Source: Escherichia coli (GTDB taxonomy: Bacteria > Pseudomonadota > Gammaproteobacteria > Enterobacterales > Enterobacteriaceae). From it: 64,000 nucleotides of DNA. Shown piece after piece: positions 1,084-18,982 of the stretch. Where the stretch lies: NCBI RefSeq assembly GCF_003334765.1, contig NZ_QOWT01000020.1. One strand, 5' to 3'. The notes beneath the pieces are model-generated. The model ran no database searches, was not told the DNA's origin, and saw only the letters and a list, made by a program, of their open reading frames with translations. Position 1 is the stretch's first letter; every line of letters begins with the position of its first letter. The translations under genes were made by a program, and so were the position numbers.

Positions 1084-1133
1084 TGGGATTTCCTTGAGCT
1101 ACTCAGTTTGTTGACAAAGTGTTCGTTGTTTTT

Positions 1134-1232
1134 GCCGGATGCGGCGTGAACGCCTTATCCGGCCTACAAAATCGCTTAAATTCAATATATTGCACCATCC
1201 TCGTAGGCCTGATAAGCGTAGCGCATCAGGCA
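1134..1232. repeat. REP/BIME element, RIP-type (two inverted REPs flanking a CAATATATTG core)
   Basis: GCCGGATGCGGCGTGAACGCCTTATCCGGCCTAC ... AATATATTG ... GTAGGCCTGATAAGCGTAGCGCATCAGGC read directly. Confidence 0.8.
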
Positions 1233-1252
1233 ATTCTGTGTTTGTCATACGT

Positions 1253-4480: not shown

Positions 4481-4596
4481 TCCGCGTCGCTTTCCGCGCG
4501 TGGGCGTTGGCGTGACTCATCGCGCTGATGTATTATGGCGCGCTATCCATCCGGGCAGAGGCCTGGCTGATTGTTTCCCCCGAAGTCACCAAGATC

Positions 4597-4890
4597 ATGG
4601 CCAAAGAACAAACGGACCGTACGACATTAGATCTGTTCGCGCACGAGCGTCGACCGGGACGACCGAAAACTAATCCGCTTTCGCGCGATGAACAGCTGCG
4701 TATTAATAAACGCAACCAGCTAAAACGCGACAAAGTACGTGGCCTTAAGCGTGTCGAACTGAAGCTGAACGCGGAAGCTGTCGAGGCGCTGAACGAGCTG
4801 GCGGAGTCGCGCAATATGAGCCGTAGCGAACTGATCGAAGAGATGTTAATGCAGCAACTGGCGGCGCTGCGTAGTCAGGGCATCGTTTAA
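4597..4890 (+). CDS. ybfE: LexA-regulated CopG-family protein YbfE
   Basis: ORF 4528..4890; internal start [10 protein letters not shown] gives 97 aa. Confidence 0.8.
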
Positions 4891-5029
4891 ATTTCCACTT
4901 TCATGTAGCACAGTGTGCAGTCCTGCTCGTTTGCTGATTCCGCAAGACTGCCTGTTCTGCTATGATTGCCTTTATCCGTGGGCAATTTTCCACCCCCATT
5001 TCAATAAGTTTCAAGAGGTTATTTCACTC

Positions 5030-5560
5030 ATGGCTATCACTGGCATCTTTTTCGGCAGCGACACCGGTAATACCGAAAATATCGCAAAAATGATTCAAAA
5101 ACAGCTTGGTAAAGACGTTGCCGATGTCCATGACATTGCAAAAAGCAGCAAAGAAGATCTGGAAGCTTATGACATTCTGCTGCTGGGCATCCCAACCTGG
5201 TATTACGGCGAAGCGCAGTGTGACTGGGATGACTTCTTCCCGACTCTCGAAGAGATTGATTTCAACGGCAAACTGGTTGCGCTGTTTGGTTGTGGTGACC
5301 AGGAAGATTACGCCGAATATTTCTGCGACGCATTGGGCACCATCCGCGACATCATTGAACCGCGCGGTGCAACCATCGTTGGTCACTGGCCAACTGCGGG
5401 CTATCATTTCGAAGCATCAAAAGGTCTGGCAGATGACGACCACTTTGTCGGTCTGGCTATCGACGAAGACCGTCAGCCGGAACTGACCGCTGAACGTGTA
5501 GAAAAATGGGTTAAACAGATTTCTGAAGAGTTGCATCTCGACGAAATTCTCAATGCCTGA
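5030..5560 (+). CDS. fldA: flavodoxin 1
   Basis: [20 protein letters not shown] flavodoxin N-terminus; internal start gives 176 aa. Confidence 0.95.
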
Positions 5561-5568
5561 TGTGATGC

Positions 5569-5590
5569 GGCGTAGACTCATGTCTACGCC
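5569..5590 (+). terminator. hairpin downstream of fldA (weak, partial read-through likely)
   Basis: GGCGTAGAC-TCA-TGTCTACGCC inverted repeat directly after the fldA stop; no strong T-run. Confidence 0.35.
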
Positions 5591-5595
5591 GTATT

Positions 5596-5625
5596 AATAG
5601 ATAATGCCAATCAAAATAATTGCTA
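5596..5625 (+). promoter_or_regulatory. Fur box-like operator upstream of uof-fur
   Basis: AATAGATAATGCCAATCAAAATAATTGC contains GATAAT/ATAATTG repeats typical of Fur sites; fur is autoregulated. Confidence 0.4.
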
Positions 5626-5769
5626 CAAATTTGTAACTTTTGCTGTTGTACCTGTACAATGTCCCGGTGTTCAAGTGGCCTTGCCGTTGTAAATGTAAGC
5701 TGTGCCACGTTTTTATTAACAATATTTGCCAGGGACTTGTGGTTTTCATTTAGGCGTGGCAATTCTATA

Positions 5770-5856
5770 ATGATACGCATTATCTCAAGAGCAAATTCTG
5801 TCACTTCTTCTAATGAAGTGAACCGCTTAGTAACAGGACAGATTCCGCATGACTGA
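5770..5856 (+). CDS. uof: upstream leader peptide of fur (Uof)
   Basis: 28-aa ORF MIRIISRANSVTSSNEVNRLVTGQIPHD whose stop overlaps the fur ATG. Confidence 0.7.
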   Translation: MIRIISRANSVTSSNEVNRLVTGQIPHD

Positions 5857-6295
5857 TAACAATACCGCCCTAAAGAAAGCTGGCCTGAAAGTAACGCTTC
5901 CTCGTTTAAAAATCCTGGAAGTTCTTCAGGAGCCGGACAACCATCACGTCAGTGCGGAAGATTTATACAAACGTCTGATCGATATGGGTGAAGAAATTGG
6001 TCTGGCTACGGTATATCGCGTACTGAACCAGTTTGACGACGCTGGTATCGTCACCCGCCACAATTTTGAAGGCGGTAAATCCGTATTTGAACTGACACAG
6101 CAACATCACCACGATCACCTGATCTGCCTCGACTGCGGCAAGGTTATCGAATTTAGTGATGATTCCATCGAAGCGCGTCAGCGTGAAATTGCCGCAAAAC
6201 ATGGCATTCGCCTGACTAACCACAGTCTCTATCTTTACGGTCACTGTGCCGAAGGCGATTGCCGCGAAGATGAACATGCGCACGAAGGCAAATAA
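5849..6295 (+). CDS. fur: ferric uptake regulator Fur
   Basis: 148-aa ORF MTDNNTALKKAGLKVTLPRLKILEVL with HHHDH and CxxC motifs. Confidence 0.97.
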   Translation: MTDNNTALKKAGLKVTLPRLKILEVLQEPDNHHVSAEDLYKRLIDMGEEIGLATVYRVLNQFDDAGIVTRHNFEGGKSVFELTQQHHHDHLICLDCGKVIEFSDDSIEARQREIAAKHGIRLTNHSLYLYGHCAEGDCREDEHAHEGK

Positions 6296-6313
6296 GCCAG
6301 CCTGAACGAGAAA

Positions 6314-6339
6314 AGCCAACCTGCGGGTTGGCTTTTTTA
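6314..6339. terminator. bidirectional intrinsic terminator between fur and chiQ
   Basis: AGCCAACCTGCGGGTTGGCTTTTTTAT. Confidence 0.75.
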
Positions 6340-6378
6340 TGCAAGGGAAATAAGAAAAGCGAGAGTTACAGCTCTCAC

Positions 6379-6705
6379 TTATTTGTTATTACTGCGTATT
6401 TCCTGCCAGACTTTATCACAATCGGCTTTCACCGCCTGATCATTTCCGGTTTGCGTTGCACGCAGACACTGCTGATAATCCAGTACGCGTACACTTTCCT
6501 GGTCGGCAAACTGCTGATGTTGTTTCTCTTTCTTCAGCACGTTTAACACGCTCTGGCAGGCTTCAATTTTTTCTGGCGAACCTTGTGCGGTGTTGATACA
6601 GGCGCTGTATGCCTCTTTCAGACGACTGTCTTCCTGTGGCGCGGTTGATTGCGCACAAGCTACCAGCCCCGATGCCATTATGGCGATGAGAATCAGTTTT
6701 TTCAT
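6379..6705 (-). CDS. chiQ: lipoprotein ChiQ (YbfN)
   Basis: 108-aa ORF with lipoprotein signal (LVACAQ), downstream of chiP in the same operon. Confidence 0.85.
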   Translation of the reverse strand: MKKLILIAIMASGLVACAQSTAPQEDSRLKEAYSACINTAQGSPEKIEACQSVLNVLKKEKQHQQFADQESVRVLDYQQCLRATQTGNDQAVKADCDKVWQEIRSNNK

Positions 6706-6754
6706 AGCAAATTCCTCAAACGTGCGGCAGGCACAAAACCTGCCGCGTCGGGCA

Positions 6755-8161
6755 TCAGAAGATGGTGAATGGTGCGATTACCATAAATTTCACGTCACGC
6801 TCATCCTGGAAGATGTTGCCGTAACCACCGCCCCAGCTTGGGATGTCGGAGTGGTTGTCGTATTCGGTGAAATGCAGTTTGAACATCGTGCCTTTGGCGC
6901 GACCGTCCTGAATGGTATAGACCGCATCCAGGCTGTAGGCAGACTCTTCAATAGTCCGGTTTTTGTCGTAGTACGCATCCGGATTGCTCTGCCAGGTCGC
7001 AGGTTTAGCATCCCATGCGTAAACGTAGGAAGCGCCGATGGCGAAGCCTGGAAGATTCCAGTTTTTCAGGTCATACATCGCACCGAAGAAGACCGCTTTT
7101 TCGCCGTTGGCGTTGAAGTCAGAACGGTTATCCCACCAGATATCCAGGCGACCGTTTGAGGAAGCGTAGGTTGGAGTCATACGTTGCAGGAAGTATCCCT
7201 GCTGACCGTCAGCCTTAACCCAGGTGCCTTCGAGGCGCAAATCCACTACGTCAGCCGCCCAGTAACCAAAGGTCAACGCTTGCAGCCAGGCGGTGCCGTC
7301 ATAAAGGTCGTTGACGCTGCGATCGTCAACTTTATCTCGGGTACCGTAGAACTGGTAGCTGGTGGTTAACGGGCTACCGGCGATATCAAATTTGTAGCTG
7401 GCTTTGGCAAAATATTGATCGATATACCCTTCCGCCTGACCAAATGCCGCTTCCAGTACGAAGTTATTTTTGAAGTCGTATTTCGCCCCAAAGGAGTGCA
7501 GATAATCAACTTTGGTGGTTTTATCGTTCTGATAAAACTCATCCATTTCCAGATGCCACGGCGCTTTGTATTCGTTGGTCCACATGTAGGAGAAACTCAA
7601 CGCACCAGCATCGCCGTAATCAAAATTCGCCCCGGCTTCCGCCCCCTGATAAGTACCTGGCATAAAGCTCCAGTGCGGCGCTAACAGCGTTTGACCAGTT
7701 GGCTGAATGTAACCTGCCCTCGCCCAAACCGGACCGTATTTAAATTTGGCCGCAGCTTTATACAGGCTTATACCGCTTTTGTCGCCGGACCAGTCTTCGT
7801 CATAGGCTTTATTACTTTTTGAAAACGCGATTTCGTTCGGGTGGGAGCTGTCGCCGTTTTCCGCCATTTCAATCGCCGTAAACGCAGCAATATCAAGGCC
7901 GAACATATCAGCAGCATAACCGGACTGAAAATCGAGGTTGGCATTCCAGGTGGAGTGAGAAAGGTTGGTTTTGTATTTGTCGCCGTCGGTAACATCTTTA
8001 CGGTCGCGTTCACGCTGCCAGTAATAGATACCGCCGGTTAAGGTTGAATCGTCGATGAATCCTTCGGCGCGAGCCTCCGGCATTGCCATAAAGCCCGACA
8101 TTGCTGTAACACCGGCGATAGCCAGCGCCAGCGTACTACGTTTGCCACTAAACGTACGCAT
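6755..8161 (-). CDS. chiP: chitoporin ChiP (YbfM), OprD-family outer-membrane porin
   Basis: 468-aa ORF with signal peptide and C-terminal aromatic residue (…APFTIF). Confidence 0.9.
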
Positions 8162-8482
8162 GGGTTAATCCTCTTTGACGTATAAATTGCTGCACCAAAG
8201 GTGAACAGCGAAAAAATAAAAATTAAAAAAGTAGCGTTGAGAAAAGTCTCGCTGACTACAGGAACAGACTATTTTTCGCGACGCGAATTATCAATCTCTT
8301 TCTGTAACCAGAATGTAAGAACATGAGCAACCGCACATATTTTGATGATTTTTGTTACAAGGCTTAAGTTTGCGGTTGAAAGGCTTGCAGAAGAATAAAA
8401 GCGTGAAATTCCAGCAAGATGAAAGCGGTTACATTTTATTTAATTATGTTTTGTTATTTTAAATTTATTTTATGGATAAATT

Positions 8483-8506
8483 GCGAAGCGGAATTAATTC
8501 GCGAAG
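8483..8506. promoter_or_regulatory. palindrome GAATTAATTC with TTAATTCG motif, candidate NagC operator in the chiP upstream region
   Basis: Shares TTAATTCG with the nagE-nagB operator at 12673..12697; chiP is reported as NagC-repressed. Confidence 0.3.
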
Positions 8507-8510
8507 AAAA

Positions 8511-8541
8511 GCAGAAAAAACGCCGCTGAACGCGGCGTTTT
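8511..8541 (-). terminator. intrinsic terminator downstream of glnS
   Basis: AAAAAAACGCCGCTGAACGCGGCGTTTT; read on the minus strand the hairpin is followed by a U-run. Confidence 0.55.
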
Positions 8542-8560
8542 GGATTGTTTGCTGTTTCTT

Positions 8561-8724
8561 GCCGGATGCGGCGTGAACGCCTTATCCGGCCTACAAAAGC
8601 ACGCAAACTCAATATATTGCAGAGATCATGTAGGCCTGATAAGCGTAGCGCATCAGGCAATTTAGCGTTTGAAACTGTTTGTCTGTTCCTTGCCGGATGC
8701 GACGTAAACGCCCCATCCGGCATA
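8561..8724. repeat. BIME/RIP cluster: REP, CAATATATTG core, inverted REP, plus a third REP
   Basis: REP copies at about 8561-8594, 8630-8659 and 8692-8724; near-identical to the element at 1134..1232. Confidence 0.8.
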
Positions 8725-8737
8725 GCGAAACTTAAAA

Positions 8738-10402
8738 TTACTCGCCTACTTTCGCCCAGGTATCACGCAGCCCAACGGTGCGGTTAAATACCGGTTTTTC
8801 CGCCGTAGAATGGCGGCTATCGAGGCAGAAGTAACCTTCACGCTCAAACTGGAATGCTTTACCCGCAACCGCATCTTTCAGCGACGGTTCAGCAAAGCCC
8901 TGTTTGATCACCAGCGATTCCGGGTTAATCACCGACAGGAAATCATCCGCAGCACCTGGGTTAGGCACGCTGAACAGACGGTCATACAAACGGATTTCAA
9001 CCGGCAGCGCATGTGCCGCGCTCACCCAGTGAATAACACCTTTGACTTTACGACCATCTGCCGGATCTTTGCTTAAGGTATCGGCGTCATAAGTACAGAA
9101 GATGGTGGTGATATTACCTTCGGCATCTTTCTCGACGCGTTCTGCCTTAATCACATAAGCATTACGCAGACGCACTTCTTTACCCAGCACCAGACGTTTG
9201 TACTGCTTGTTAGCTTCTTCGCGGAAATCGGCGCGATCAATCCAAATCTCACCGCTAAACGGCACCTGACGGCTGCCCATTTCCGGTTTGTTCGGATGGT
9301 TCGGCATGGTAACCATTTCGCCTTCGCCCTGATAGTTTTCGATAACCAGTTTCACCGGATCGATAACCGCCATTGCGCGCGGCGCATTTTCGTTGAGATC
9401 TTCACGGATGCAGGATTCCAGCGACGCCATCTCAATGGTGTTGTCCTGCTTGGTCACGCCGATGCGTTTGCAGAACTCACGAATAGAAGCCGCAGTGTAA
9501 CCACGACGACGCAGACCGGAAATGGTCGGCATACGCGGGTCATCCCAGCCTTCAACGTGCTTGTCGGTCACCAGCAGGTTCAACTTACGCTTGGACATCA
9601 CGGTGTATTCCAGATTCAGGCGCGAGAACTCATACTGGCGCGGGTGAACAGGAATCGTGATGTTGTCCAGTACCCAGTCGTACAGACGACGGTTGTCCTG
9701 GAACTCAAGCGTACACAGAGAGTGCGTAATACCTTCCAGGGCATCGCTGATGCAGTGGGTGAAGTCGTACATCGGGTAGATGCACCACTTGTTGCCAGTC
9801 TGGTGGTGTTCAGCAAATTTAATACGGTACAGCACCGGATCGCGCATCACGATAAACGGTGAAGCCATGTCGATTTTCGCACGCAGGCAGGCTTTACCTT
9901 CTTCAAAACCACCGGCACGCATTTTTTCGAACAGCGCCAGGTTCTCTTCAACGCTGCGGTCGCGGTACGGGCTGTTTTTACCCGGTTGCGTCAGGGTGCC
10001 GCGGTATTCGCGGATCTGTTCCGGCGTCAGTTCATCAACGTACGCCAGGCCTTTATTGATCAGTTCGATCGCATAGGCGTGGAGCTGATCAAAATAATCG
10101 GAGGAGTAACGGACGTTACCAGACCAGTGAAAACCTAACCACTCTACGTCGTTTTTGATCGACTCAACATACTCGATATCTTCTTTTACCGGGTTAGTGT
10201 CGTCGAAACGCAGGTTGCACTGGCCTTTATAGTCCTGGGCGATCCCGAAGTTCAGGCAGATAGATTTCGCATGGCCAATATGCAGATAGCCATTCGGCTC
10301 CGGCGGGAAACGGGTGTGTACTGTGGTGTGCTTACCACTGGCCAGATCTTCATCGATGATCTGACGGATAAAGTTAGTCGGGCGGGCTTCTGCCTCACTC
10401 AT
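8738..10402 (-). CDS. glnS: glutaminyl-tRNA synthetase
   Basis: 554-aa [23 protein letters not shown] with HIGH (HIGHAK) and VMSKR motifs. Confidence 0.97.
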
Positions 10403-10604
10403 CGTGGATTCCTCAAAGCGTAAACAACGTATAACGGCGTATGATCTTATAAGCGGGACAGGCTGACAACTGTTAGTTTTTTAAAATTGATAATCTAACA
10501 AGGATTATGGGGATGATTGATGAAAAAAAAAGCGGCAGAGAAGATCTCCACCGCTTGTCATTGTTGGATGCGACGCTCAAGCGTCGCATCAGGCATAAAG
10601 CAGA

Positions 10605-12551
10605 TTACTTTTTGATTTCATACAGCGGTGTTTGACCCGCCACAACATGGCCCTGAGCTTTAATGATCAAGCCACTGAAATCGTCGATATTGCTGCAAAC
10701 CACCGGGCTAATCATCGAGCGGGCGTTAGCGTTCAGGTAATCCAGATCCATTTCCAGAATCGGTTGCCCTGCGCTTACCTGCGCACCCTCTTCCACCAGA
10801 CGTTTAAAGCCTTTACCTTCCAGCGCTACGGTGTCGATACCCATATGGACGACGATCTCCGCGCCTTTTTCGGTTTCCAGGCAGAACGCGTGGTTGGTGT
10901 TGAAGATTTTCACGATTGTCCCTGCGGCTGGTGATACGACGATTTTATCTGTCGGTTTCACCGCCACACCGTCACCCACCGCTTTGCTGGCGAATGCTTC
11001 GTCAGGAACCTGATCCAGTGCCACGACATCACCGGTAATCGGCGATACCAGCTCCGCGATAGATACCGCGTTTGGTACAGCCTGCGGTTTTGCTACAGGC
11101 GCGGCAGTTGCCGGAGTTGCTTCAGCTGACGCAGCGGCTACCGGACCACGGGCAACGACTTTCTTCATCGCATCGCCGATGGATTCTGCTTTCGCGCCAA
11201 CAATCACCTGAATAGTCTGTTTGTTCAGTTTCACTACCCCAGAAGCACCCAGACGTTTACACATCGTATCGTTAACGCGGGCAGAGTCAGCCACTGTAAG
11301 GCGCAGACGGGTGATACAGGCGTCAATCGCTTTCAGGTTGTCAGTGCCGCCAACCGCAGCAATATAGTTGGTTGCCAGTTGAGTCAGACCTTCTTCAGTG
11401 TTGCTGTTGGCTTCTTCAGTAACGATCTCGTCTTCTTTATCTTCACGACCCGGCGTTTTCAGGTTGAACATGCGGATAACCAAACTGAACACCACGAAGT
11501 AGATAGCGAAGAAGATAACGCCCATCACCAGCAGCATCCAGACGTTCTGGCTGGCGGCCGGCAGGTTATACATCAACGCGTAGTCGATAGCCCCCGCAGA
11601 GAAAGAGAAGCCCGCGTGGATACCCAGCAGCGTTGCCACAAACAGGCTGATACCGGTCAGCAGTGCGTGCAGGAGGTACAGCAGCGGAGCAAGGAACATG
11701 AACAGGAATTCCAGCGGCTCAGTCACACCGGTCAGGAACGCAGTAACAGCAACAGAAAGCAGCATACCGCCAACCATCGGACGACGCTCTTTCGGTGCTG
11801 CGAAGTACATCGCCAGCGCCGCACCCGGCAGACCGAACATCATGATCGGGAAGAAGCCGGACATGAACATCCCCGCGGTGCCGTCACCGGCATAGAAGCG
11901 GTTAATGTCACCGTGGAAAACCGTACCCGCCGCGTTGGTGAATTCACCAATCTGGAACCAGGCGATGGTGTTCAGTACCTGATGCAGACCGGTTGGGATC
12001 AGCAGACGGTTGATGAAACCAAAGATACCGGAACCCAGCGCGCCCGCAGAAACGATCCACTCGCCGCCTGCATGGATAGCGTGCTGTACTGGCGGCCAGA
12101 CGTAACCAAAAATGGCCGCCAGCACCAGGCAGAAGAATCCGGTGGCAATCGGCACAAAGCGTTTGCCGCCGAAGAAGCTCAGGAAGTCCGGCAGTTTAAT
12201 ATCGGACCAACGGTTATAGGCTGCGCCACCAACCAGACCGGTAATGATACCCGCCAGTACACCCATGTTAATTTCTGGGTTGATGGTCACCATCGCTTTG
12301 GTTAACACAAAGTAACCTACCGCACCCGCCAGCGCCGCCGCACCAGCGCTGTCTTTCGACCAGCTGGATGCCACACCGATGGCGAAGATTAATGCGAGGT
12401 TATCAAAAATCGCACCGCCCGCCTGGGCAATAAACGCAACGTTAAGTAAATCTGGCTGACCGAATCGCAGCAACAGTGCCGCCACCGGCAGCACCGCGAT
12501 AGGGAGCTGTAACGCCCTACCGAGTCGCTGGAAAAAACCTAAAATATTCAT
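10605..12551 (-). CDS. nagE: PTS N-acetylglucosamine transporter EIICBA
   Basis: 648-aa ORF MNILGFFQRLGRALQLPIAVLP; membrane EIIC followed by EIIB/EIIA domains. Confidence 0.95.
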   Translation of the reverse strand: MNILGFFQRLGRALQLPIAVLPVAALLLRFGQPDLLNVAFIAQAGGAIFDNLALIFAIGVASSWSKDSAGAAALAGAVGYFVLTKAMVTINPEINMGVLAGIITGLVGGAAYNRWSDIKLPDFLSFFGGKRFVPIATGFFCLVLAAIFGYVWPPVQHAIHAGGEWIVSAGALGSGIFGFINRLLIPTGLHQVLNTIAWFQIGEFTNAAGTVFHGDINRFYAGDGTAGMFMSGFFPIMMFGLPGAALAMYFAAPKERRPMVGGMLLSVAVTAFLTGVTEPLEFLFMFLAPLLYLLHALLTGISLFVATLLGIHAGFSFSAGAIDYALMYNLPAASQNVWMLLVMGVIFFAIYFVVFSLVIRMFNLKTPGREDKEDEIVTEEANSNTEEGLTQLATNYIAAVGGTDNLKAIDACITRLRLTVADSARVNDTMCKRLGASGVVKLNKQTIQVIVGAKAESIGDAMKKVVARGPVAAASAEATPATAAPVAKPQAVPNAVSIAELVSPITGDVVALDQVPDEAFASKAVGDGVAVKPTDKIVVSPAAGTIVKIFNTNHAFCLETEKGAEIVVHMGIDTVALEGKGFKRLVEEGAQVSAGQPILEMDLDYLNANARSMISPVVCSNIDDFSGLIIKAQGHVVAGQTPLYEIKK

Positions 12552-12672
12552 CTTATTCCCCCTACGAGAACCCTATTTGGCTCGTTTCAAGCCGTATTTT
12601 TATTTTGCTGCAAATTGTACTGCCGATGTTCTGTAATCAGATTGTTAGATCATCTGCTACAGAGTGTGTGAA

Positions 12673-12697
12673 AATTTAATTCGTATCGCAAATTAAA
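12673..12697. promoter_or_regulatory. NagC operator (nagE-proximal) in the divergent nagE-nagB control region
   Basis: AATTTAATTCGTATCGCAAATTAAA pseudo-palindrome. Confidence 0.5.
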
Positions 12698-12705
12698 CGC
12701 GTGTC

Positions 12706-12727
12706 TTTTGTGAGTTTTGTCACCAAA
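12706..12727. promoter_or_regulatory. CRP (cAMP receptor protein) site
   Basis: TTTTGTGAGTTTTGTCACCAAA matches TGTGA-N6-TCACA, placed between two NagC-like operators. Confidence 0.6.
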
Positions 12728-12767
12728 TATCGTTATCATCACTCCCTTTTACTGGCTAAACCAGAAA

Positions 12768-12790
12768 ACTTATTTTATCATTCAAAAAAT
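12768..12790. promoter_or_regulatory. NagC operator (nagB-proximal)
   Basis: ACTTATTTTATCATTCAAAAAAT, AT-rich operator about 95 bp from the first; spacing fits repression by looping. Confidence 0.5.
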
Positions 12791-12883
12791 CAGGTCGGAT
12801 TGACGCCTGTCTGCGCAAATCCAGGTTACGCTTAAAGATGCCTAATCCGCCAACGGCTTACATTTTACTTATTGAGGTGAATA

Positions 12884-14892
<2,009 letters not shown>

Positions 14893-14900
14893 GAGAAAGT

Positions 14901-16121
14901 ATGACACCAGGCGGACAAGCTCAGATAGGTAATGTTGATCTCGTAAAACAGCTTAACAGCGCGGCGGTTTATCGCCTGATTGACCAGTACGGGCCAATCT
15001 CGCGGATTCAGATTGCCGAGCAAAGCCAGCTTGCCCCCGCCAGCGTAACCAAAATTACGCGTCAGCTTATCGAACGCGGGCTGATCAAAGAAGTTGATCA
15101 GCAGGCCTCCACCGGGGGCCGCCGCGCTATCTCCATCGTCACCGAAACCCGCAATTTCCACGCAATCGGCGTACGGCTTGGTCGTCATGACGCCACCATC
15201 ACTCTGTTTGATCTCAGCAGCAAAGTGCTGGCAGAAGAACATTACCCGCTGCCGGAACGTACCCAGCAAACGCTGGAACATGCCCTGTTGAATGCCATTG
15301 CTCAGTTTATTGATAGCTACCAGCGCAAACTGCGCGAGCTGATCGCGATTTCGGTGATCCTGCCAGGGCTTGTTGACCCGGACAGCGGCAAAATTCATTA
15401 CATGCCGCATATTCAGGTAGAAAACTGGGGGCTGGTAGAAGCTCTGGAAGAACGTTTTAAAGTGACCTGTTTCGTTGGTCACGATATCCGTAGTCTGGCG
15501 CTGGCGGAGCACTACTTCGGTGCAAGTCAGGATTGCGAAGACTCCATTCTGGTGCGTGTCCATCGCGGAACCGGGGCCGGGATTATCTCTAACGGGCGCA
15601 TTTTTATTGGCCGCAACGGCAACGTCGGTGAAATTGGCCATATTCAGGTCGAACCGCTGGGTGAACGCTGCCACTGCGGCAACTTTGGCTGCCTGGAAAC
15701 TATCGCTGCCAACGCTGCCATTGAACAACGGGTGTTGAATCTGTTAAAGCAGGGCTACCAGAGCCGCGTGCCGCTGGACGACTGCACCATCAAAACTATC
15801 TGCAAAGCCGCGAACAAAGGCGATAGTCTGGCGTCGGAAGTAATTGAGTATGTCGGTCGTCATCTGGGTAAAACCATCGCCATTGCTATCAACTTATTTA
15901 ATCCGCAAAAAATTGTTATTGCCGGTGAAATCACCGAAGCCGATAAAGTGCTGCTCCCTGCTATTGAAAGCTGCATTAATACCCAGGCGCTGAAGGCGTT
16001 TCGCACTAATCTGCCGGTGGTACGTTCTGAGCTGGATCACCGCTCGGCAATCGGCGCTTTTGCGCTGGTAAAACGCGCCATGCTCAACGGTATTTTGCTC
16101 CAGCATTTGCTGGAAAATTAA
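14901..16121 (+). CDS. nagC: ROK-family repressor NagC
   Basis: 406-aa ORF with N-terminal HTH and ROK CxCGxxGC motif (HCGNFGC). Confidence 0.97.
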   Translation: MTPGGQAQIGNVDLVKQLNSAAVYRLIDQYGPISRIQIAEQSQLAPASVTKITRQLIERGLIKEVDQQASTGGRRAISIVTETRNFHAIGVRLGRHDATITLFDLSSKVLAEEHYPLPERTQQTLEHALLNAIAQFIDSYQRKLRELIAISVILPGLVDPDSGKIHYMPHIQVENWGLVEALEERFKVTCFVGHDIRSLALAEHYFGASQDCEDSILVRVHRGTGAGIISNGRIFIGRNGNVGEIGHIQVEPLGERCHCGNFGCLETIAANAAIEQRVLNLLKQGYQSRVPLDDCTIKTICKAANKGDSLASEVIEYVGRHLGKTIAIAINLFNPQKIVIAGEITEADKVLLPAIESCINTQALKAFRTNLPVVRSELDHRSAIGAFALVKRAMLNGILLQHLLEN

Positions 16122-16168
16122 TGTGCTTTTATAGTGGCGCTTATTGTTGTCAATATTCTGGGTAGTCC

Positions 16169-16921
16169 ATGACCATTAAAAATGTAATTTGCGATATCGA
16201 CGGCGTGCTGATGCACGATAACGTCGCCGTACCGGGTGCAGCGGAATTTTTGCACGGGATTATGGATAAAGGCCTGCCGCTGGTGTTGCTGACCAACTAT
16301 CCTTCGCAGACTGGGCAAGATCTGGCGAACCGCTTTGCCACCGCAGGTGTCGATGTACCTGACAGCGTGTTTTATACCTCTGCGATGGCGACTGCCGATT
16401 TCCTGCGTCGCCAGGAAGGCAAGAAAGCGTATGTGGTGGGCGAAGGCGCACTGATTCATGAACTGTACAAAGCCGGTTTCACTATTACCGATGTGAACCC
16501 TGATTTCGTGATTGTTGGCGAAACGCGTTCCTACAACTGGGACATGATGCATAAAGCAGCCTATTTCGTCGCTAACGGTGCACGTTTTATCGCCACCAAT
16601 CCGGACACCCACGGGCGCGGTTTTTATCCCGCTTGTGGCGCGTTGTGTGCAGGGATTGAGAAAATCTCCGGGCGCAAACCGTTCTATGTTGGTAAGCCCA
16701 GCCCGTGGATCATCCGCGCAGCATTAAACAAAATGCAGGCGCATTCGGAAGAAACGGTGATTGTCGGCGATAACCTGCGTACCGATATTCTGGCCGGCTT
16801 CCAGGCAGGTCTGGAGACGATTCTGGTGCTTTCTGGTGTTTCGTCGCTCGACGATATCGACAGTATGCCTTTCCGCCCCAGCTGGATTTACCCGTCAGTC
16901 GCTGAAATCGACGTTATCTGA
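16169..16921 (+). CDS. nagD: UMP phosphatase NagD/UmpH (HAD superfamily)
   Basis: 250-aa ORF MTIKNVICDIDGVL with HAD DxDG motif. Confidence 0.95.
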   Translation: MTIKNVICDIDGVLMHDNVAVPGAAEFLHGIMDKGLPLVLLTNYPSQTGQDLANRFATAGVDVPDSVFYTSAMATADFLRRQEGKKAYVVGEGALIHELYKAGFTITDVNPDFVIVGETRSYNWDMMHKAAYFVANGARFIATNPDTHGRGFYPACGALCAGIEKISGRKPFYVGKPSPWIIRAALNKMQAHSEETVIVGDNLRTDILAGFQAGLETILVLSGVSSLDDIDSMPFRPSWIYPSVAEIDVI

Positions 16922-16972
16922 ATAGCAACCACGTCTGCGGACGTGGTTGGCTCTGATGACAAACGCCAAACT

Positions 16973-17071
16973 GCCTGATGCGCTACGCTTATCAGGCCTA
17001 CGCAGCTCCTGCAATATATTGAATTTTCATGCTTTTGTAGGCCGGATAAGGCGTTCACGCCGCATCCGGCA
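16973..17071. repeat. REP/BIME element, RIP-type, inverted relative to the copy at 1134..1232
   Basis: TGCCTGATGCGCTACGCTTATCAGGCCTAC ... CAATATATTG ... TAGGCCGGATAAGGCGTTCACGCCGCATCCGGCA. Confidence 0.8.
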
Positions 17072-17317
17072 TGAACAAATCGCACTTTGTCAGCAATTTG
17101 GCCCCCGTAAAATATAAACATTCAATAAAACCCGCTAAAAATTATCGATTCATCAATAAATATATCCTCACACCAGACCTTTTTTCACCAATCGACAATC
17201 ACCATTACGTTTTTTATTTTTTCACCGCCAAATCGCTTGCGCACAGTGCTGCTTTGCGGCATTTTTTTAAACAAGCAAACACAACAAGCAACAAATACCA
17301 GGTTAACGGAGAAGGTT

Positions 17318-18982
17318 ATGTGTTCAATTTTTGGCGTATTCGATATCAAAACAGACGCAGTTGAGCTGCGTAAGAAAGCCCTCGAGCTGTCACGCCTGAT
17401 GCGTCATCGTGGCCCGGACTGGTCCGGTATTTATGCCAGCGATAACGCCATTCTCGCCCACGAACGTCTGTCAATTGTTGACGTTAACGCGGGGGCGCAA
17501 CCTCTCTACAACCAACAAAAAACCCACGTACTGGCGGTAAACGGTGAAATCTACAACCACCAGGCATTGCGCGCCGAATATGGCGATCGTTACCAGTTCC
17601 AGACCGGGTCTGACTGTGAAGTGATCCTCGCGCTGTATCAGGAAAAAGGGCCGGAATTTCTCGACGACTTGCAGGGCATGTTTGCCTTTGCACTGTACGA
17701 CAGCGAAAAAGATGCCTACCTGATTGGTCGCGACCATCTGGGGATCATCCCACTGTATATGGGGTATGACGAACACGGTCAGCTGTATGTGGCCTCAGAA
17801 ATGAAAGCGCTGGTGCCAGTTTGCCGCACGATTAAAGAGTTCCCGGCGGGGAGCTATTTGTGGAGCCAGGACGGCGAAATCCGTTCTTACTATCATCGCG
17901 ACTGGTTCGACTACGATGCGGTGAAAGATAACGTGACCGACAAAAACGAGCTGCGTCAGGCACTGGAAGATTCAGTTAAAAGCCATCTGATGTCTGATGT
18001 GCCTTACGGTGTGCTGCTTTCTGGTGGTCTGGATTCCTCAATTATTTCCGCTATCACCAAGAAATACGCAGCCCGTCGCGTGGAAGATCAGGAACGCTCT
18101 GAAGCCTGGTGGCCGCAGTTACACTCCTTTGCTGTAGGTCTGCCGGGTTCACCGGATCTGAAAGCAGCCCAGGAAGTGGCAAACCATCTGGGCACGGTGC
18201 ATCACGAAATTCACTTCACTGTACAGGAAGGTCTGGATGCCATCCGCGACGTGATTTACCACATCGAAACTTATGATGTGACCACTATTCGCGCTTCAAC
18301 ACCGATGTATTTAATGTCGCGTAAGATCAAGGCGATGGGCATTAAAATGGTGCTGTCCGGTGAAGGTTCTGATGAAGTGTTCGGCGGTTATCTTTACTTC
18401 CACAAAGCACCGAATGCCAAAGAACTGCATGAAGAGACGGTGCGTAAACTGCTGGCCCTGCATATGTATGACTGCGCGCGTGCCAACAAAGCGATGTCAG
18501 CCTGGGGCGTGGAAGCACGCGTTCCGTTCCTCGACAAAAAATTCCTTGATGTGGCGATGCGTATTAACCCACAGGATAAAATGTGCGGTAACGGCAAAAT
18601 GGAAAAACACATCCTGCGTGAATGTTTTGAAGCGTATCTGCCTGCAAGCGTGGCCTGGCGGCAGAAAGAGCAGTTCTCCGATGGCGTCGGTTACAGTTGG
18701 ATCGACACCCTGAAAGAAGTGGCTGCGCAGCAGGTTTCTGATCAGCAACTGGAAACTGCCCGCTTCCGCTTCCCGTACAACACGCCAACCTCTAAAGAAG
18801 CGTACTTGTATCGGGAGATCTTTGAAGAACTATTCCCGCTTCCGAGCGCCGCTGAGTGCGTGCCGGGCGGTCCTTCCGTCGCTTGTTCTTCCGCTAAAGC
18901 GATCGAATGGGATGAAGCGTTCAAGAAAATGGACGATCCGTCTGGTCGCGCGGTTGGTGTTCACCAGTCGGCGTATAAGTAA
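17318..18982 (+). CDS. asnB: asparagine synthetase B (glutamine-hydrolysing)
   Basis: ORF 17237..18982; internal start MCSIFGVFDIK (Cys2 nucleophile) gives 554 aa. Confidence 0.97.
   Translation: MCSIFGVFDIKTDAVELRKKALELSRLMRHRGPDWSGIYASDNAILAHERLSIVDVNAGAQPLYNQQKTHVLAVNGEIYNHQALRAEYGDRYQFQTGSDCEVILALYQEKGPEFLDDLQGMFAFALYDSEKDAYLIGRDHLGIIPLYMGYDEHGQLYVASEMKALVPVCRTIKEFPAGSYLWSQDGEIRSYYHRDWFDYDAVKDNVTDKNELRQALEDSVKSHLMSDVPYGVLLSGGLDSSIISAITKKYAARRVEDQERSEAWWPQLHSFAVGLPGSPDLKAAQEVANHLGTVHHEIHFTVQEGLDAIRDVIYHIETYDVTTIRASTPMYLMSRKIKAMGIKMVLSGEGSDEVFGGYLYFHKAPNAKELHEETVRKLLALHMYDCARANKAMSAWGVEARVPFLDKKFLDVAMRINPQDKMCGNGKMEKHILRECFEAYLPASVAWRQKEQFSDGVGYSWIDTLKEVAAQQVSDQQLETARFRFPYNTPTSKEAYLYREIFEELFPLPSAAECVPGGPSVACSSAKAIEWDEAFKKMDDPSGRAVGVHQSAYK

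Follow-up and report, generated by a model that had tools for sequence, protein, structure and literature searches.

Organization of the nag and chiP region

The DNA analysed here, referred to below as the window, is a stretch of 64,000 nt from Escherichia coli (assembly GCF_003334765.1, contig NZ_QOWT01000020.1). Positions 12673 to 12790 of the window are the divergent control region of nagE and nagBACD. This segment sits inside the 332-bp nagE-nagB intergenic region (12552..12883), with nagE as the left-hand operon on the minus strand and the nagB-nagA-nagC-nagD operon (12884..16921) on the plus strand; glnS and the chitoporin gene chiP follow beyond nagE (Table 1). The interval given in the earlier note is right to within a base or two, its end at 12790 omitting the last base of the second operator. 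Curated NCBIfam equivalog cut-offs are exceeded by NagC, NagB, NagE, NagA and ChiP. NagE scores 1448.6 bits against NF007608 (cut-off 1010), and the NagC product scores 719.2 bits against NF047937 (cut-off 650) and remains below the cut-off of the Mlc model (421 versus 530).

The region is nearly universal in the species. A 601-bp query across the control region matches 5425 of the 5426 complete E. coli genomes (at least 99% identity in 5408), and nagE and nagB are annotated beneath the query match in RefSeq. K-12 MG1655 699000..712000, reverse-complemented, corresponds to window 4495..17495 with 5 mismatches (99.96% identity over 13 kb). Compared with the K-12 nagE-nagBACD region (Plumbridge & Kolb 1991, 1993), the locus is the same and both operators are identical, whereas one spacer base differs and the 5 SNPs in 13 kb show that the strain is not MG1655. 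That base, the sole intergenic difference, is position 12737 (C in the window, T in K-12), which falls in the poorly conserved spacer between the CRP site and the nagB operator.

An Rfam search over 6000..17500 returned nothing in the nagE-nagB or chiP control region. Its only match was to the ES036 (CssrF) sRNA (16994..17036, minus strand, 41.1 bits; gathering score 37.6), placed between nagD/umpH and asnB within a REP-like repeat of ∼117 bp. The repeat recurs at ∼90% identity between glnS and chiP (8556..8671) and again near 1108..1248, and it may be this repeat, rather than a distinct sRNA gene, that lies behind the score.

Table 1. Genes and regulatory features of the nag and chiP region, in window coordinates.
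Feature	Position	Strand	Centre	Basis
chiP, chitoporin	6755..8161	minus		NCBIfam NF047822, 849 bits; K-12 annotation
chiP operator, high affinity ('ybfM proximal'), GATAATTCGCGTCGCGAAAAATA	8270..8292	minus		Exact published match; 20.7 bits, rank 1 in window
Candidate distal NagC operator, weak/degenerate	8476..8515	minus		Two overlapping frames with common arm ATTAAT
glnS	8738..10402	minus		ORF; K-12 annotation
nagE, PTS GlcNAc transporter IIABC	10605..12551	minus		ORF; RefSeq; NCBIfam NF007608
Predicted nagE -10 hexamer, CACACT (AGTGTG on plus)	12661..12666	minus		Conserved block; key A2 and T6
nagE NagC operator ('BoxE'), 23-bp quasi-palindrome, TTTAATTCGTATCGCAAATTAAA	12675..12697		12686	Published-site identity; matrix
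cAMP-CRP site (22 bp), core TGTGAGTTTTGTCACC	12706..12727 (core 12709..12724)		12716.5	Core match; conservation
Predicted nagB -35 hexamer, TGGCTA	12753..12758	plus		Conserved block ACTGGCT (12751..12757), 17 bp before TATCAT
nagB NagC operator ('BoxB'), 23-bp site, CTTATTTTATCATTCAAAAAATC	12769..12791		12780	Published-site identity; matrix
Predicted nagB -10 hexamer, TATCAT	12776..12781	plus		Inside nagB operator; 5/6 match to TATAAT
nagB	12884..13684	plus		ORF; NCBIfam equivalog; K-12 annotation
nagA	13744..14892	plus		ORF; NCBIfam equivalog; K-12 annotation
nagC, repressor gene	14901..16121	plus		ORF; NCBIfam NF047937; K-12 annotation
nagD/umpH	16169..16921	plus		ORF; K-12 annotation

The nagE and nagB operators

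Two AT-rich pseudo-palindromes, described in the earlier note as ∼95 bp apart, are indeed present, with their centres separated by 94 bp (8.95 turns at 10.5 bp per turn); because this distance amounts to ∼9.0 turns, both operators would lie on the same face of the helix. Both are published NagC operators. Of the ten E. coli NagC sites in Table 1 of PMC3098098, the nagB, nagE and 'ybfM proximal' entries each occur as an exact string match once in the window. Within the nagE operator, TTTAATT and AATTAAA form a perfect 7-bp inverted repeat separated by 9 bp.

NagC sites are defined in the literature as 23-bp quasi-palindromes with invariant TT at -6,-5 and AA at +5,+6 (PMC4288165). These dinucleotides are found in the nagE operator (TT 12680-81, AA 12691-92), in the nagB operator (TT 12774-75, AA 12785-86) and in the chiP operator at 8270..8292. 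High-affinity NagC sites carry C or G at ±11, A/T at these positions being typical of Mlc-type or weak sites (PMC4288165). The nagB operator has C at both ends (12769 and 12791). The ends of the nagE operator are T (12675) and A (12697), a pair that has been singled out as the cause of its weakness and of its dependence on the nagB operator (PMC4288165). That paper gives the wild-type nagE operator as '-11A,+11T', while in the present sequence and in PMC3098098 position -11 is T and position +11 is A, whichever strand is read; this is a discrepancy of notation only, with an A/T pair both ways.

A symmetrised NagC matrix (14 sequences) was derived from the seven PMC3098098 operators that lie outside the window, which avoids circularity. 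Among the ∼64,000 window positions, its top three matches are the chiP operator (20.7 bits), the nagE operator (17.3 bits) and the nagB operator (14.1 bits), the fourth-best match reaching 13.2 bits. A matrix scan had been proposed as a check on the two nag palindromes, and with this matrix of outside sites they take ranks 2 and 3. All three operators stay at ranks 1 to 5 under three pseudocounts and with an arms-only matrix. In dinucleotide shuffles of the 64 kb, 0.045 matches are expected at 17.3 bits or more and 0.75 at 14.0 bits or more; taken singly, the nagB operator is not remarkable at the scale of the window. When the 332-bp intergenic region itself is shuffled, one match of at least 14 bits arises in 119 of 5000 shuffles and two non-overlapping matches in 0 of 5000.

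Two more 23-mers with the TT/AA dinucleotides and with arms entirely of A/T were noticed in the window: CTTTTTTATGCAAGGGAAATAAG at 6332..6354 in the chiQ-fur interval (11.6 bits, rank 7), and CTTATTTAATCCGCAAAAAATTG at 15893..15915, within nagC. Both are probably due to chance.

The CRP site and the nagE and nagB promoters

A near-consensus CRP site does lie between the palindromes, as had been claimed. CRP sites were scored by core match to TGTGA-N6-TCACA, with local shuffles and conservation, and the core found here agrees with this consensus at 9 of 10 positions. Its centre is 30.5 bp from that of the nagE operator and 63.5 bp from that of the nagB operator. Cores matching at 9 or more of the 10 positions occur 3 times in the 64-kb window (2.0 expected) and in 55 of 5000 intergenic shuffles. 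In isolation, the CRP core is not remarkable at window scale; in combination, the operator pair and the CRP core are remarkable relative to chance.

This single CRP site is common to the nagE and nagB promoters. Both genes are among the CRP genomic SELEX targets (PMC3105977), and that study lists multiple CRP sites for the nagE-nagB region, versus the one conserved site found here. A second candidate, TGTGAAAATTTAATTC at 12666..12681, was rejected with a core match of only 5/10; its conserved TGTG seems better explained as the complement of the predicted nagE -10 hexamer.

The promoters can be placed from conserved blocks. The block that includes the predicted nagE -10 hexamer (12661..12668) has a mean identity of 0.80 and no length change in 50 aligned sequences. 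At the predicted nagB -10 hexamer, TAT-AT is kept in 48 of 49 orthologues, as TATCAT, TATGAT or TATTAT, the form in Morganella being TAAGAT. Transcription would then start at ∼12655 for nagE and ∼12788 for nagB, 133 bp apart. With the starts read from these conserved -10-like hexamers, the CRP centre would fall at -61.5 (nagE) and -71.5 (nagB), and the operators would span ∼ -42 to -20 (nagE) and ∼ -19 to +4 (nagB). Plumbridge and Kolb reportedly described, in 1991, 133 bp between the starts and CRP at -61.5.

A consensus promoter scan of the region did not detect the predicted nagE and nagB promoters, as is expected of weak CRP-dependent promoters. Its only matches were an unrelated sequence resembling a promoter (12857..12885) and, antisense to the nagE leader on the plus strand, a hairpin resembling a terminator (12578..12594).

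Conservation of the module across Enterobacterales

A NagE-based scan with one genome per species gave 49 Enterobacterales loci with divergent nagB-nagE, ranging from Escherichia to Morganella and Budvicia. Both operators and the CRP site are present in all of them except Arsenophonus. The operator spacing is 94 bp in 45/49 loci and 93 bp in 3/49, and the distance from the CRP site to the nagB operator is 63.5 bp in 48/49. The CRP core keeps at least 9 of 10 consensus positions in 44 of the 49 species, and the nagE operator is found in 48 of the 49 orthologous loci at 14 to 19 bits. The nagB operator has a mean identity of 0.92 (50 sequences).

The module is rigid in length. The 131-bp segment 12661..12791 stays within 1 bp of the same length. 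Of the 50 aligned sequences, 47 have 11 bp between the nagE operator and the CRP site and the other 3 have 10 bp, and all 50 have 44 bp between the CRP site and the nagB operator. The flanking leaders, in comparison, vary more than twofold (72 to 160 bp for nagE, 90 to 258 bp for nagB). Sequence identity is concentrated in the binding sites, at 0.89 to 0.99 in the operators and CRP half-sites as against 0.54 to 0.61 in the spacers; within the CRP core, conservation is 99% and 96% in the two half-sites and 43% in the N6 spacer. Spacing that is kept without spacer sequence is what a phased, looped nucleoprotein complex would predict. The contribution made here is this quantified rigidity, a fixed length of 131 bp across at least 49 species amid drifting surroundings.

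A NagC repression loop with CRP inside

The nagE-nagBACD region is almost certainly organized as a loop through which NagC represses, with cAMP-CRP inside. The looping, the inducer and the activation by CRP come from the literature, by way of secondary statements in open papers, and are combined with the site identities, scores, spacing and conservation observed here and with the predicted promoter hexamers, starts and CRP positions. Without inducer, NagC would occupy the strong operator at 12769..12791, over the predicted nagB -10 hexamer and start, as well as the weak operator at 12675..12697, over the predicted nagE -35 region. The two bound NagC units would cooperate, with the intervening DNA looped out, and through this loop the weak nagE operator would be occupied and both promoters shut jointly. 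GlcNAc-6-phosphate would remove NagC and thereby open the loop; one cAMP-CRP dimer at 12709..12724 would then activate both weak promoters from class-I-type positions (∼ -61.5 for nagE, ∼ -71.5 for nagB). The same NagC would shut chiP via 8270..8292, inside the chiP core promoter. CRP binding inside the nag loop is said, in papers of 1991 and 1998, to stabilise the loop.

The control region is already known in detail, and since the early 1990s the nagE-nagB loop, which encloses an activator, has been a textbook-level case of cooperative repression. Its recovery here carries little weight as a discovery; the region was recognised correctly from raw sequence. According to the published work, the weak nagE operator is repressed only via cooperative NagC looping with the strong nagB operator (PMC4288165), both operons escape repression when the phasing of the operators is altered (PMC2946308), GlcNAc-6P displaces NagC (PMC2946308), and there is overlap between the operators and the start regions of nagE and nagB, with cAMP-CRP stimulating nagE more than nagB (PMC12562284). 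The earlier note's proposal of NagC repression by looping around CRP is the established reading, given the exact published operators and these reports (PMC4288165, PMC2946308), and no evidence contradicting it was found.

The A/T pair of the nagE operator at ±11 calls for comparison with Mlc, a paralogous ROK repressor whose operators (ptsG, ptsHI, manXYZ, malT, mlc) are the same 23-bp quasi-palindromes with TT/AA at ±5,6. Since this pair is the signature of Mlc sites, 12675..12697 might be mainly an Mlc operator, which would place nagE in the glucose (Mlc) regulon and not in the NagC regulon; the site has been termed a hybrid Mlc/NagC site, and the logos of the two proteins are essentially indistinguishable (PMC4288165). 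Such an assignment is nevertheless very improbable. At physiological protein levels there is no cross-regulation, the nagE site is preferentially regulated by NagC when the nagB operator is present, and nagE expression is reported to be unchanged in an mlc deletion and derepressed in a nagC deletion (PMC4288165). The rigid 94-bp pairing of the nagE operator with a C/G-flanked NagC site in 45/49 species likewise argues for one protein. Unlike the nagE operator, the nagB and chiP sites have C or G in one or both ±11 positions and are of NagC type, and the in vivo regulator here is NagC (PMC4288165).

A second possibility accepts NagC and dispenses with the loop, each operator acting independently by blocking its promoter and the 94 bp being simply the distance of two promoters arranged on one CRP site. 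Each operator does overlap its own predicted core promoter, which is enough for steric repression, and the common CRP site already constrains the inter-promoter distance. Two published observations make this account scarcely credible: the wild-type nagE operator alone is unrepressed by NagC and requires the nagB operator (PMC4288165), and a change in operator phasing derepresses both operons (PMC2946308). The 1-bp deletion seen in three species, always between the nagE operator and the CRP site, is compatible with a loop but hardly informative on loop versus no loop.

The NagC loop belongs with other well-known arrangements. In the gal repressosome (GalR at OE/OI with HU) and in the glpTQ-glpACB loop, as in nag, two phased operators lie ∼90 to 115 bp apart at promoters, with a bending protein inside, and divergent operons have CRP in common. 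The nag loop differs in that its repressor is of the ROK family, not LacI/GalR or DeoR, and in that the protein inside the loop also activates both promoters. The glpTQ-glpACB loop is cited in PMC2946308.

The chiP operator

chiP is the second NagC-repressed transcription unit in the window, with a regulator in common with nag. The earlier note had placed both operons under one regulator, which is correct (chiP is a NagC target; PMC4098024), but the evidence offered, a motif at 8483..8506, was weak and the main operator at 8270..8292 was missed. The functional connection to chiP is made by the operator at 8270..8292; the repeated 8-mer of that motif does not provide it. The identical 23-mer is found in 26 of 31 species, and the site scores at least 19.3 bits in 31/31. 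The annotated 5' end of ChiZ, the sRNA of the chiP 5'-UTR, in NC_000913.3 corresponds to window 8259; relative to this position the operator spans -33 to -11, between TTGATA (8294..8289) and TAGTCT (8271..8266) as -35 and -10. As far as the control of chiP/chiPQ by NagC and the ChiX sRNA is described in PMC4098024 (citing Plumbridge et al. 2014), the published operator is unchanged at 8270..8292, whereas the site of the earlier note lies ∼200 bp further upstream and is weak and half-conserved.

A conserved CRP-like site, TGTGCGGTTGCTCATG, is also found upstream of chiP (8322..8337, minus strand), with TGTG and TCA nearly invariant in 32 sequences and its centre 70.5 bp upstream of the ChiZ/chiP 5' end at 8259. 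SELEX with CRP newly identified ybfM (chiP) as a target (PMC3105977).

A candidate distal NagC site upstream of chiP

The motif said to recur upstream of chiP does so as the 8-mer TTAATTCG at 8494..8501, although at chance frequency, and 8483..8506 gives no significant NagC matrix score with both arms (the best frames reach 8.7 to 10.5 bits, ranks 11 to 27). The candidate consists of two overlapping frames. The frame 8493..8515 (centre 8504) keeps TT/AA at ±5,6 and scores 8.7 bits (rank 27). The frame 8476..8498 (centre 8487) also keeps TT/AA at ±5,6 and has good arms and a poor centre; its arms-only rank is 17 to 18, and its full-matrix score is as low as -3.6 bits mostly because bases in the variable centre do not occur in the 14 sequences of the matrix. 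A shifted frame, 8475..8497, scores higher (10.5 bits, rank 11) with 2 of the 4 invariant positions broken.

Whether these frames have any function in E. coli is, in our judgement, evenly balanced: the motif at 8483..8506 may well be a chance AT-rich match beside the glnS terminator, with no regulatory role. TTAATTCG has 3 copies in the window, against 2.97 expected, and the ranks given above fit such a match. Half of the frame 8493..8515 is no more than the glnS terminator's U-tract tail, and the distal frames, just past that terminator, are 206 to 223 bp from the strong chiP operator. The comparison among species tells against chance. Within an otherwise unalignable spacer, the arm CGCGAATTAAT is 70 to 90% conserved, and in 26 of 31 other species it aligns with the right half of a full distal NagC-type palindrome of 9 to 18.5 bits, located 160 to 237 bp upstream of the proximal operator (for example CAATATTCGCGTCGCGAATTAAT, 18.5 bits). 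In E. coli the other half of this palindrome is replaced by the tail of the glnS terminator T-tract. NagC, moreover, commonly pairs a weak auxiliary site with a strong one (PMC4288165), and the label 'ybfM proximal' in PMC3098098 implies a recognised distal site and suggests that this site was already known to the Plumbridge laboratory.

By this alignment, 8483..8506 appears to touch a real evolutionary remnant of a distal operator. The further step, that control of chiP by a two-operator NagC loop is ancestral to Enterobacterales and that E. coli keeps one distal arm in two weak overlapping frames, is possible but rather unlikely. If it were true and undescribed, and if NagC bound cooperatively, the NagC-ChiX-ChiZ circuit would gain a minor element, an auxiliary operator eroded by the neighbouring terminator.

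The Enterobacter cloacae group and Lelliottia are without the distal palindrome and have another NagC-like 23-mer, CTTATTTTTTTGAAAAAAGTTTC (12 to 14 bits), ∼191 bp upstream of the proximal site. Helical phase in the spacings between the proximal and distal chiP sites was considered as evidence and rejected, R being ∼0.6 for every period from 10.3 to 11.5 and these distances clustering by clade.

Two forms of nagE

Together with the distal chiP site, the existence of two forms of nagE is the only item here that might repay further work. Two deeply divergent forms occupy the same nagB-nagE-glnS locus (L015 and L018-L055 versus L001-L014, L016, L017, L042 and L058). Over residues 1-395 (IIC and the beginning of IIB) the two forms have only 43 to 50% identity, while their IIA domains are orthologous (100% for L015 compared with the window). 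DNA homology between the window and L015, which is labelled E. coli SCPM-O-B-8794, ends at 12662, at the predicted nagE -10 hexamer, and resumes at 11366. Congeneric species can differ in the form that they carry, as do Enterobacter cloacae and E. asburiae, or Serratia grimesii and S. plymuthica. The 94-bp operator-CRP-operator module is kept with both forms of nagE.
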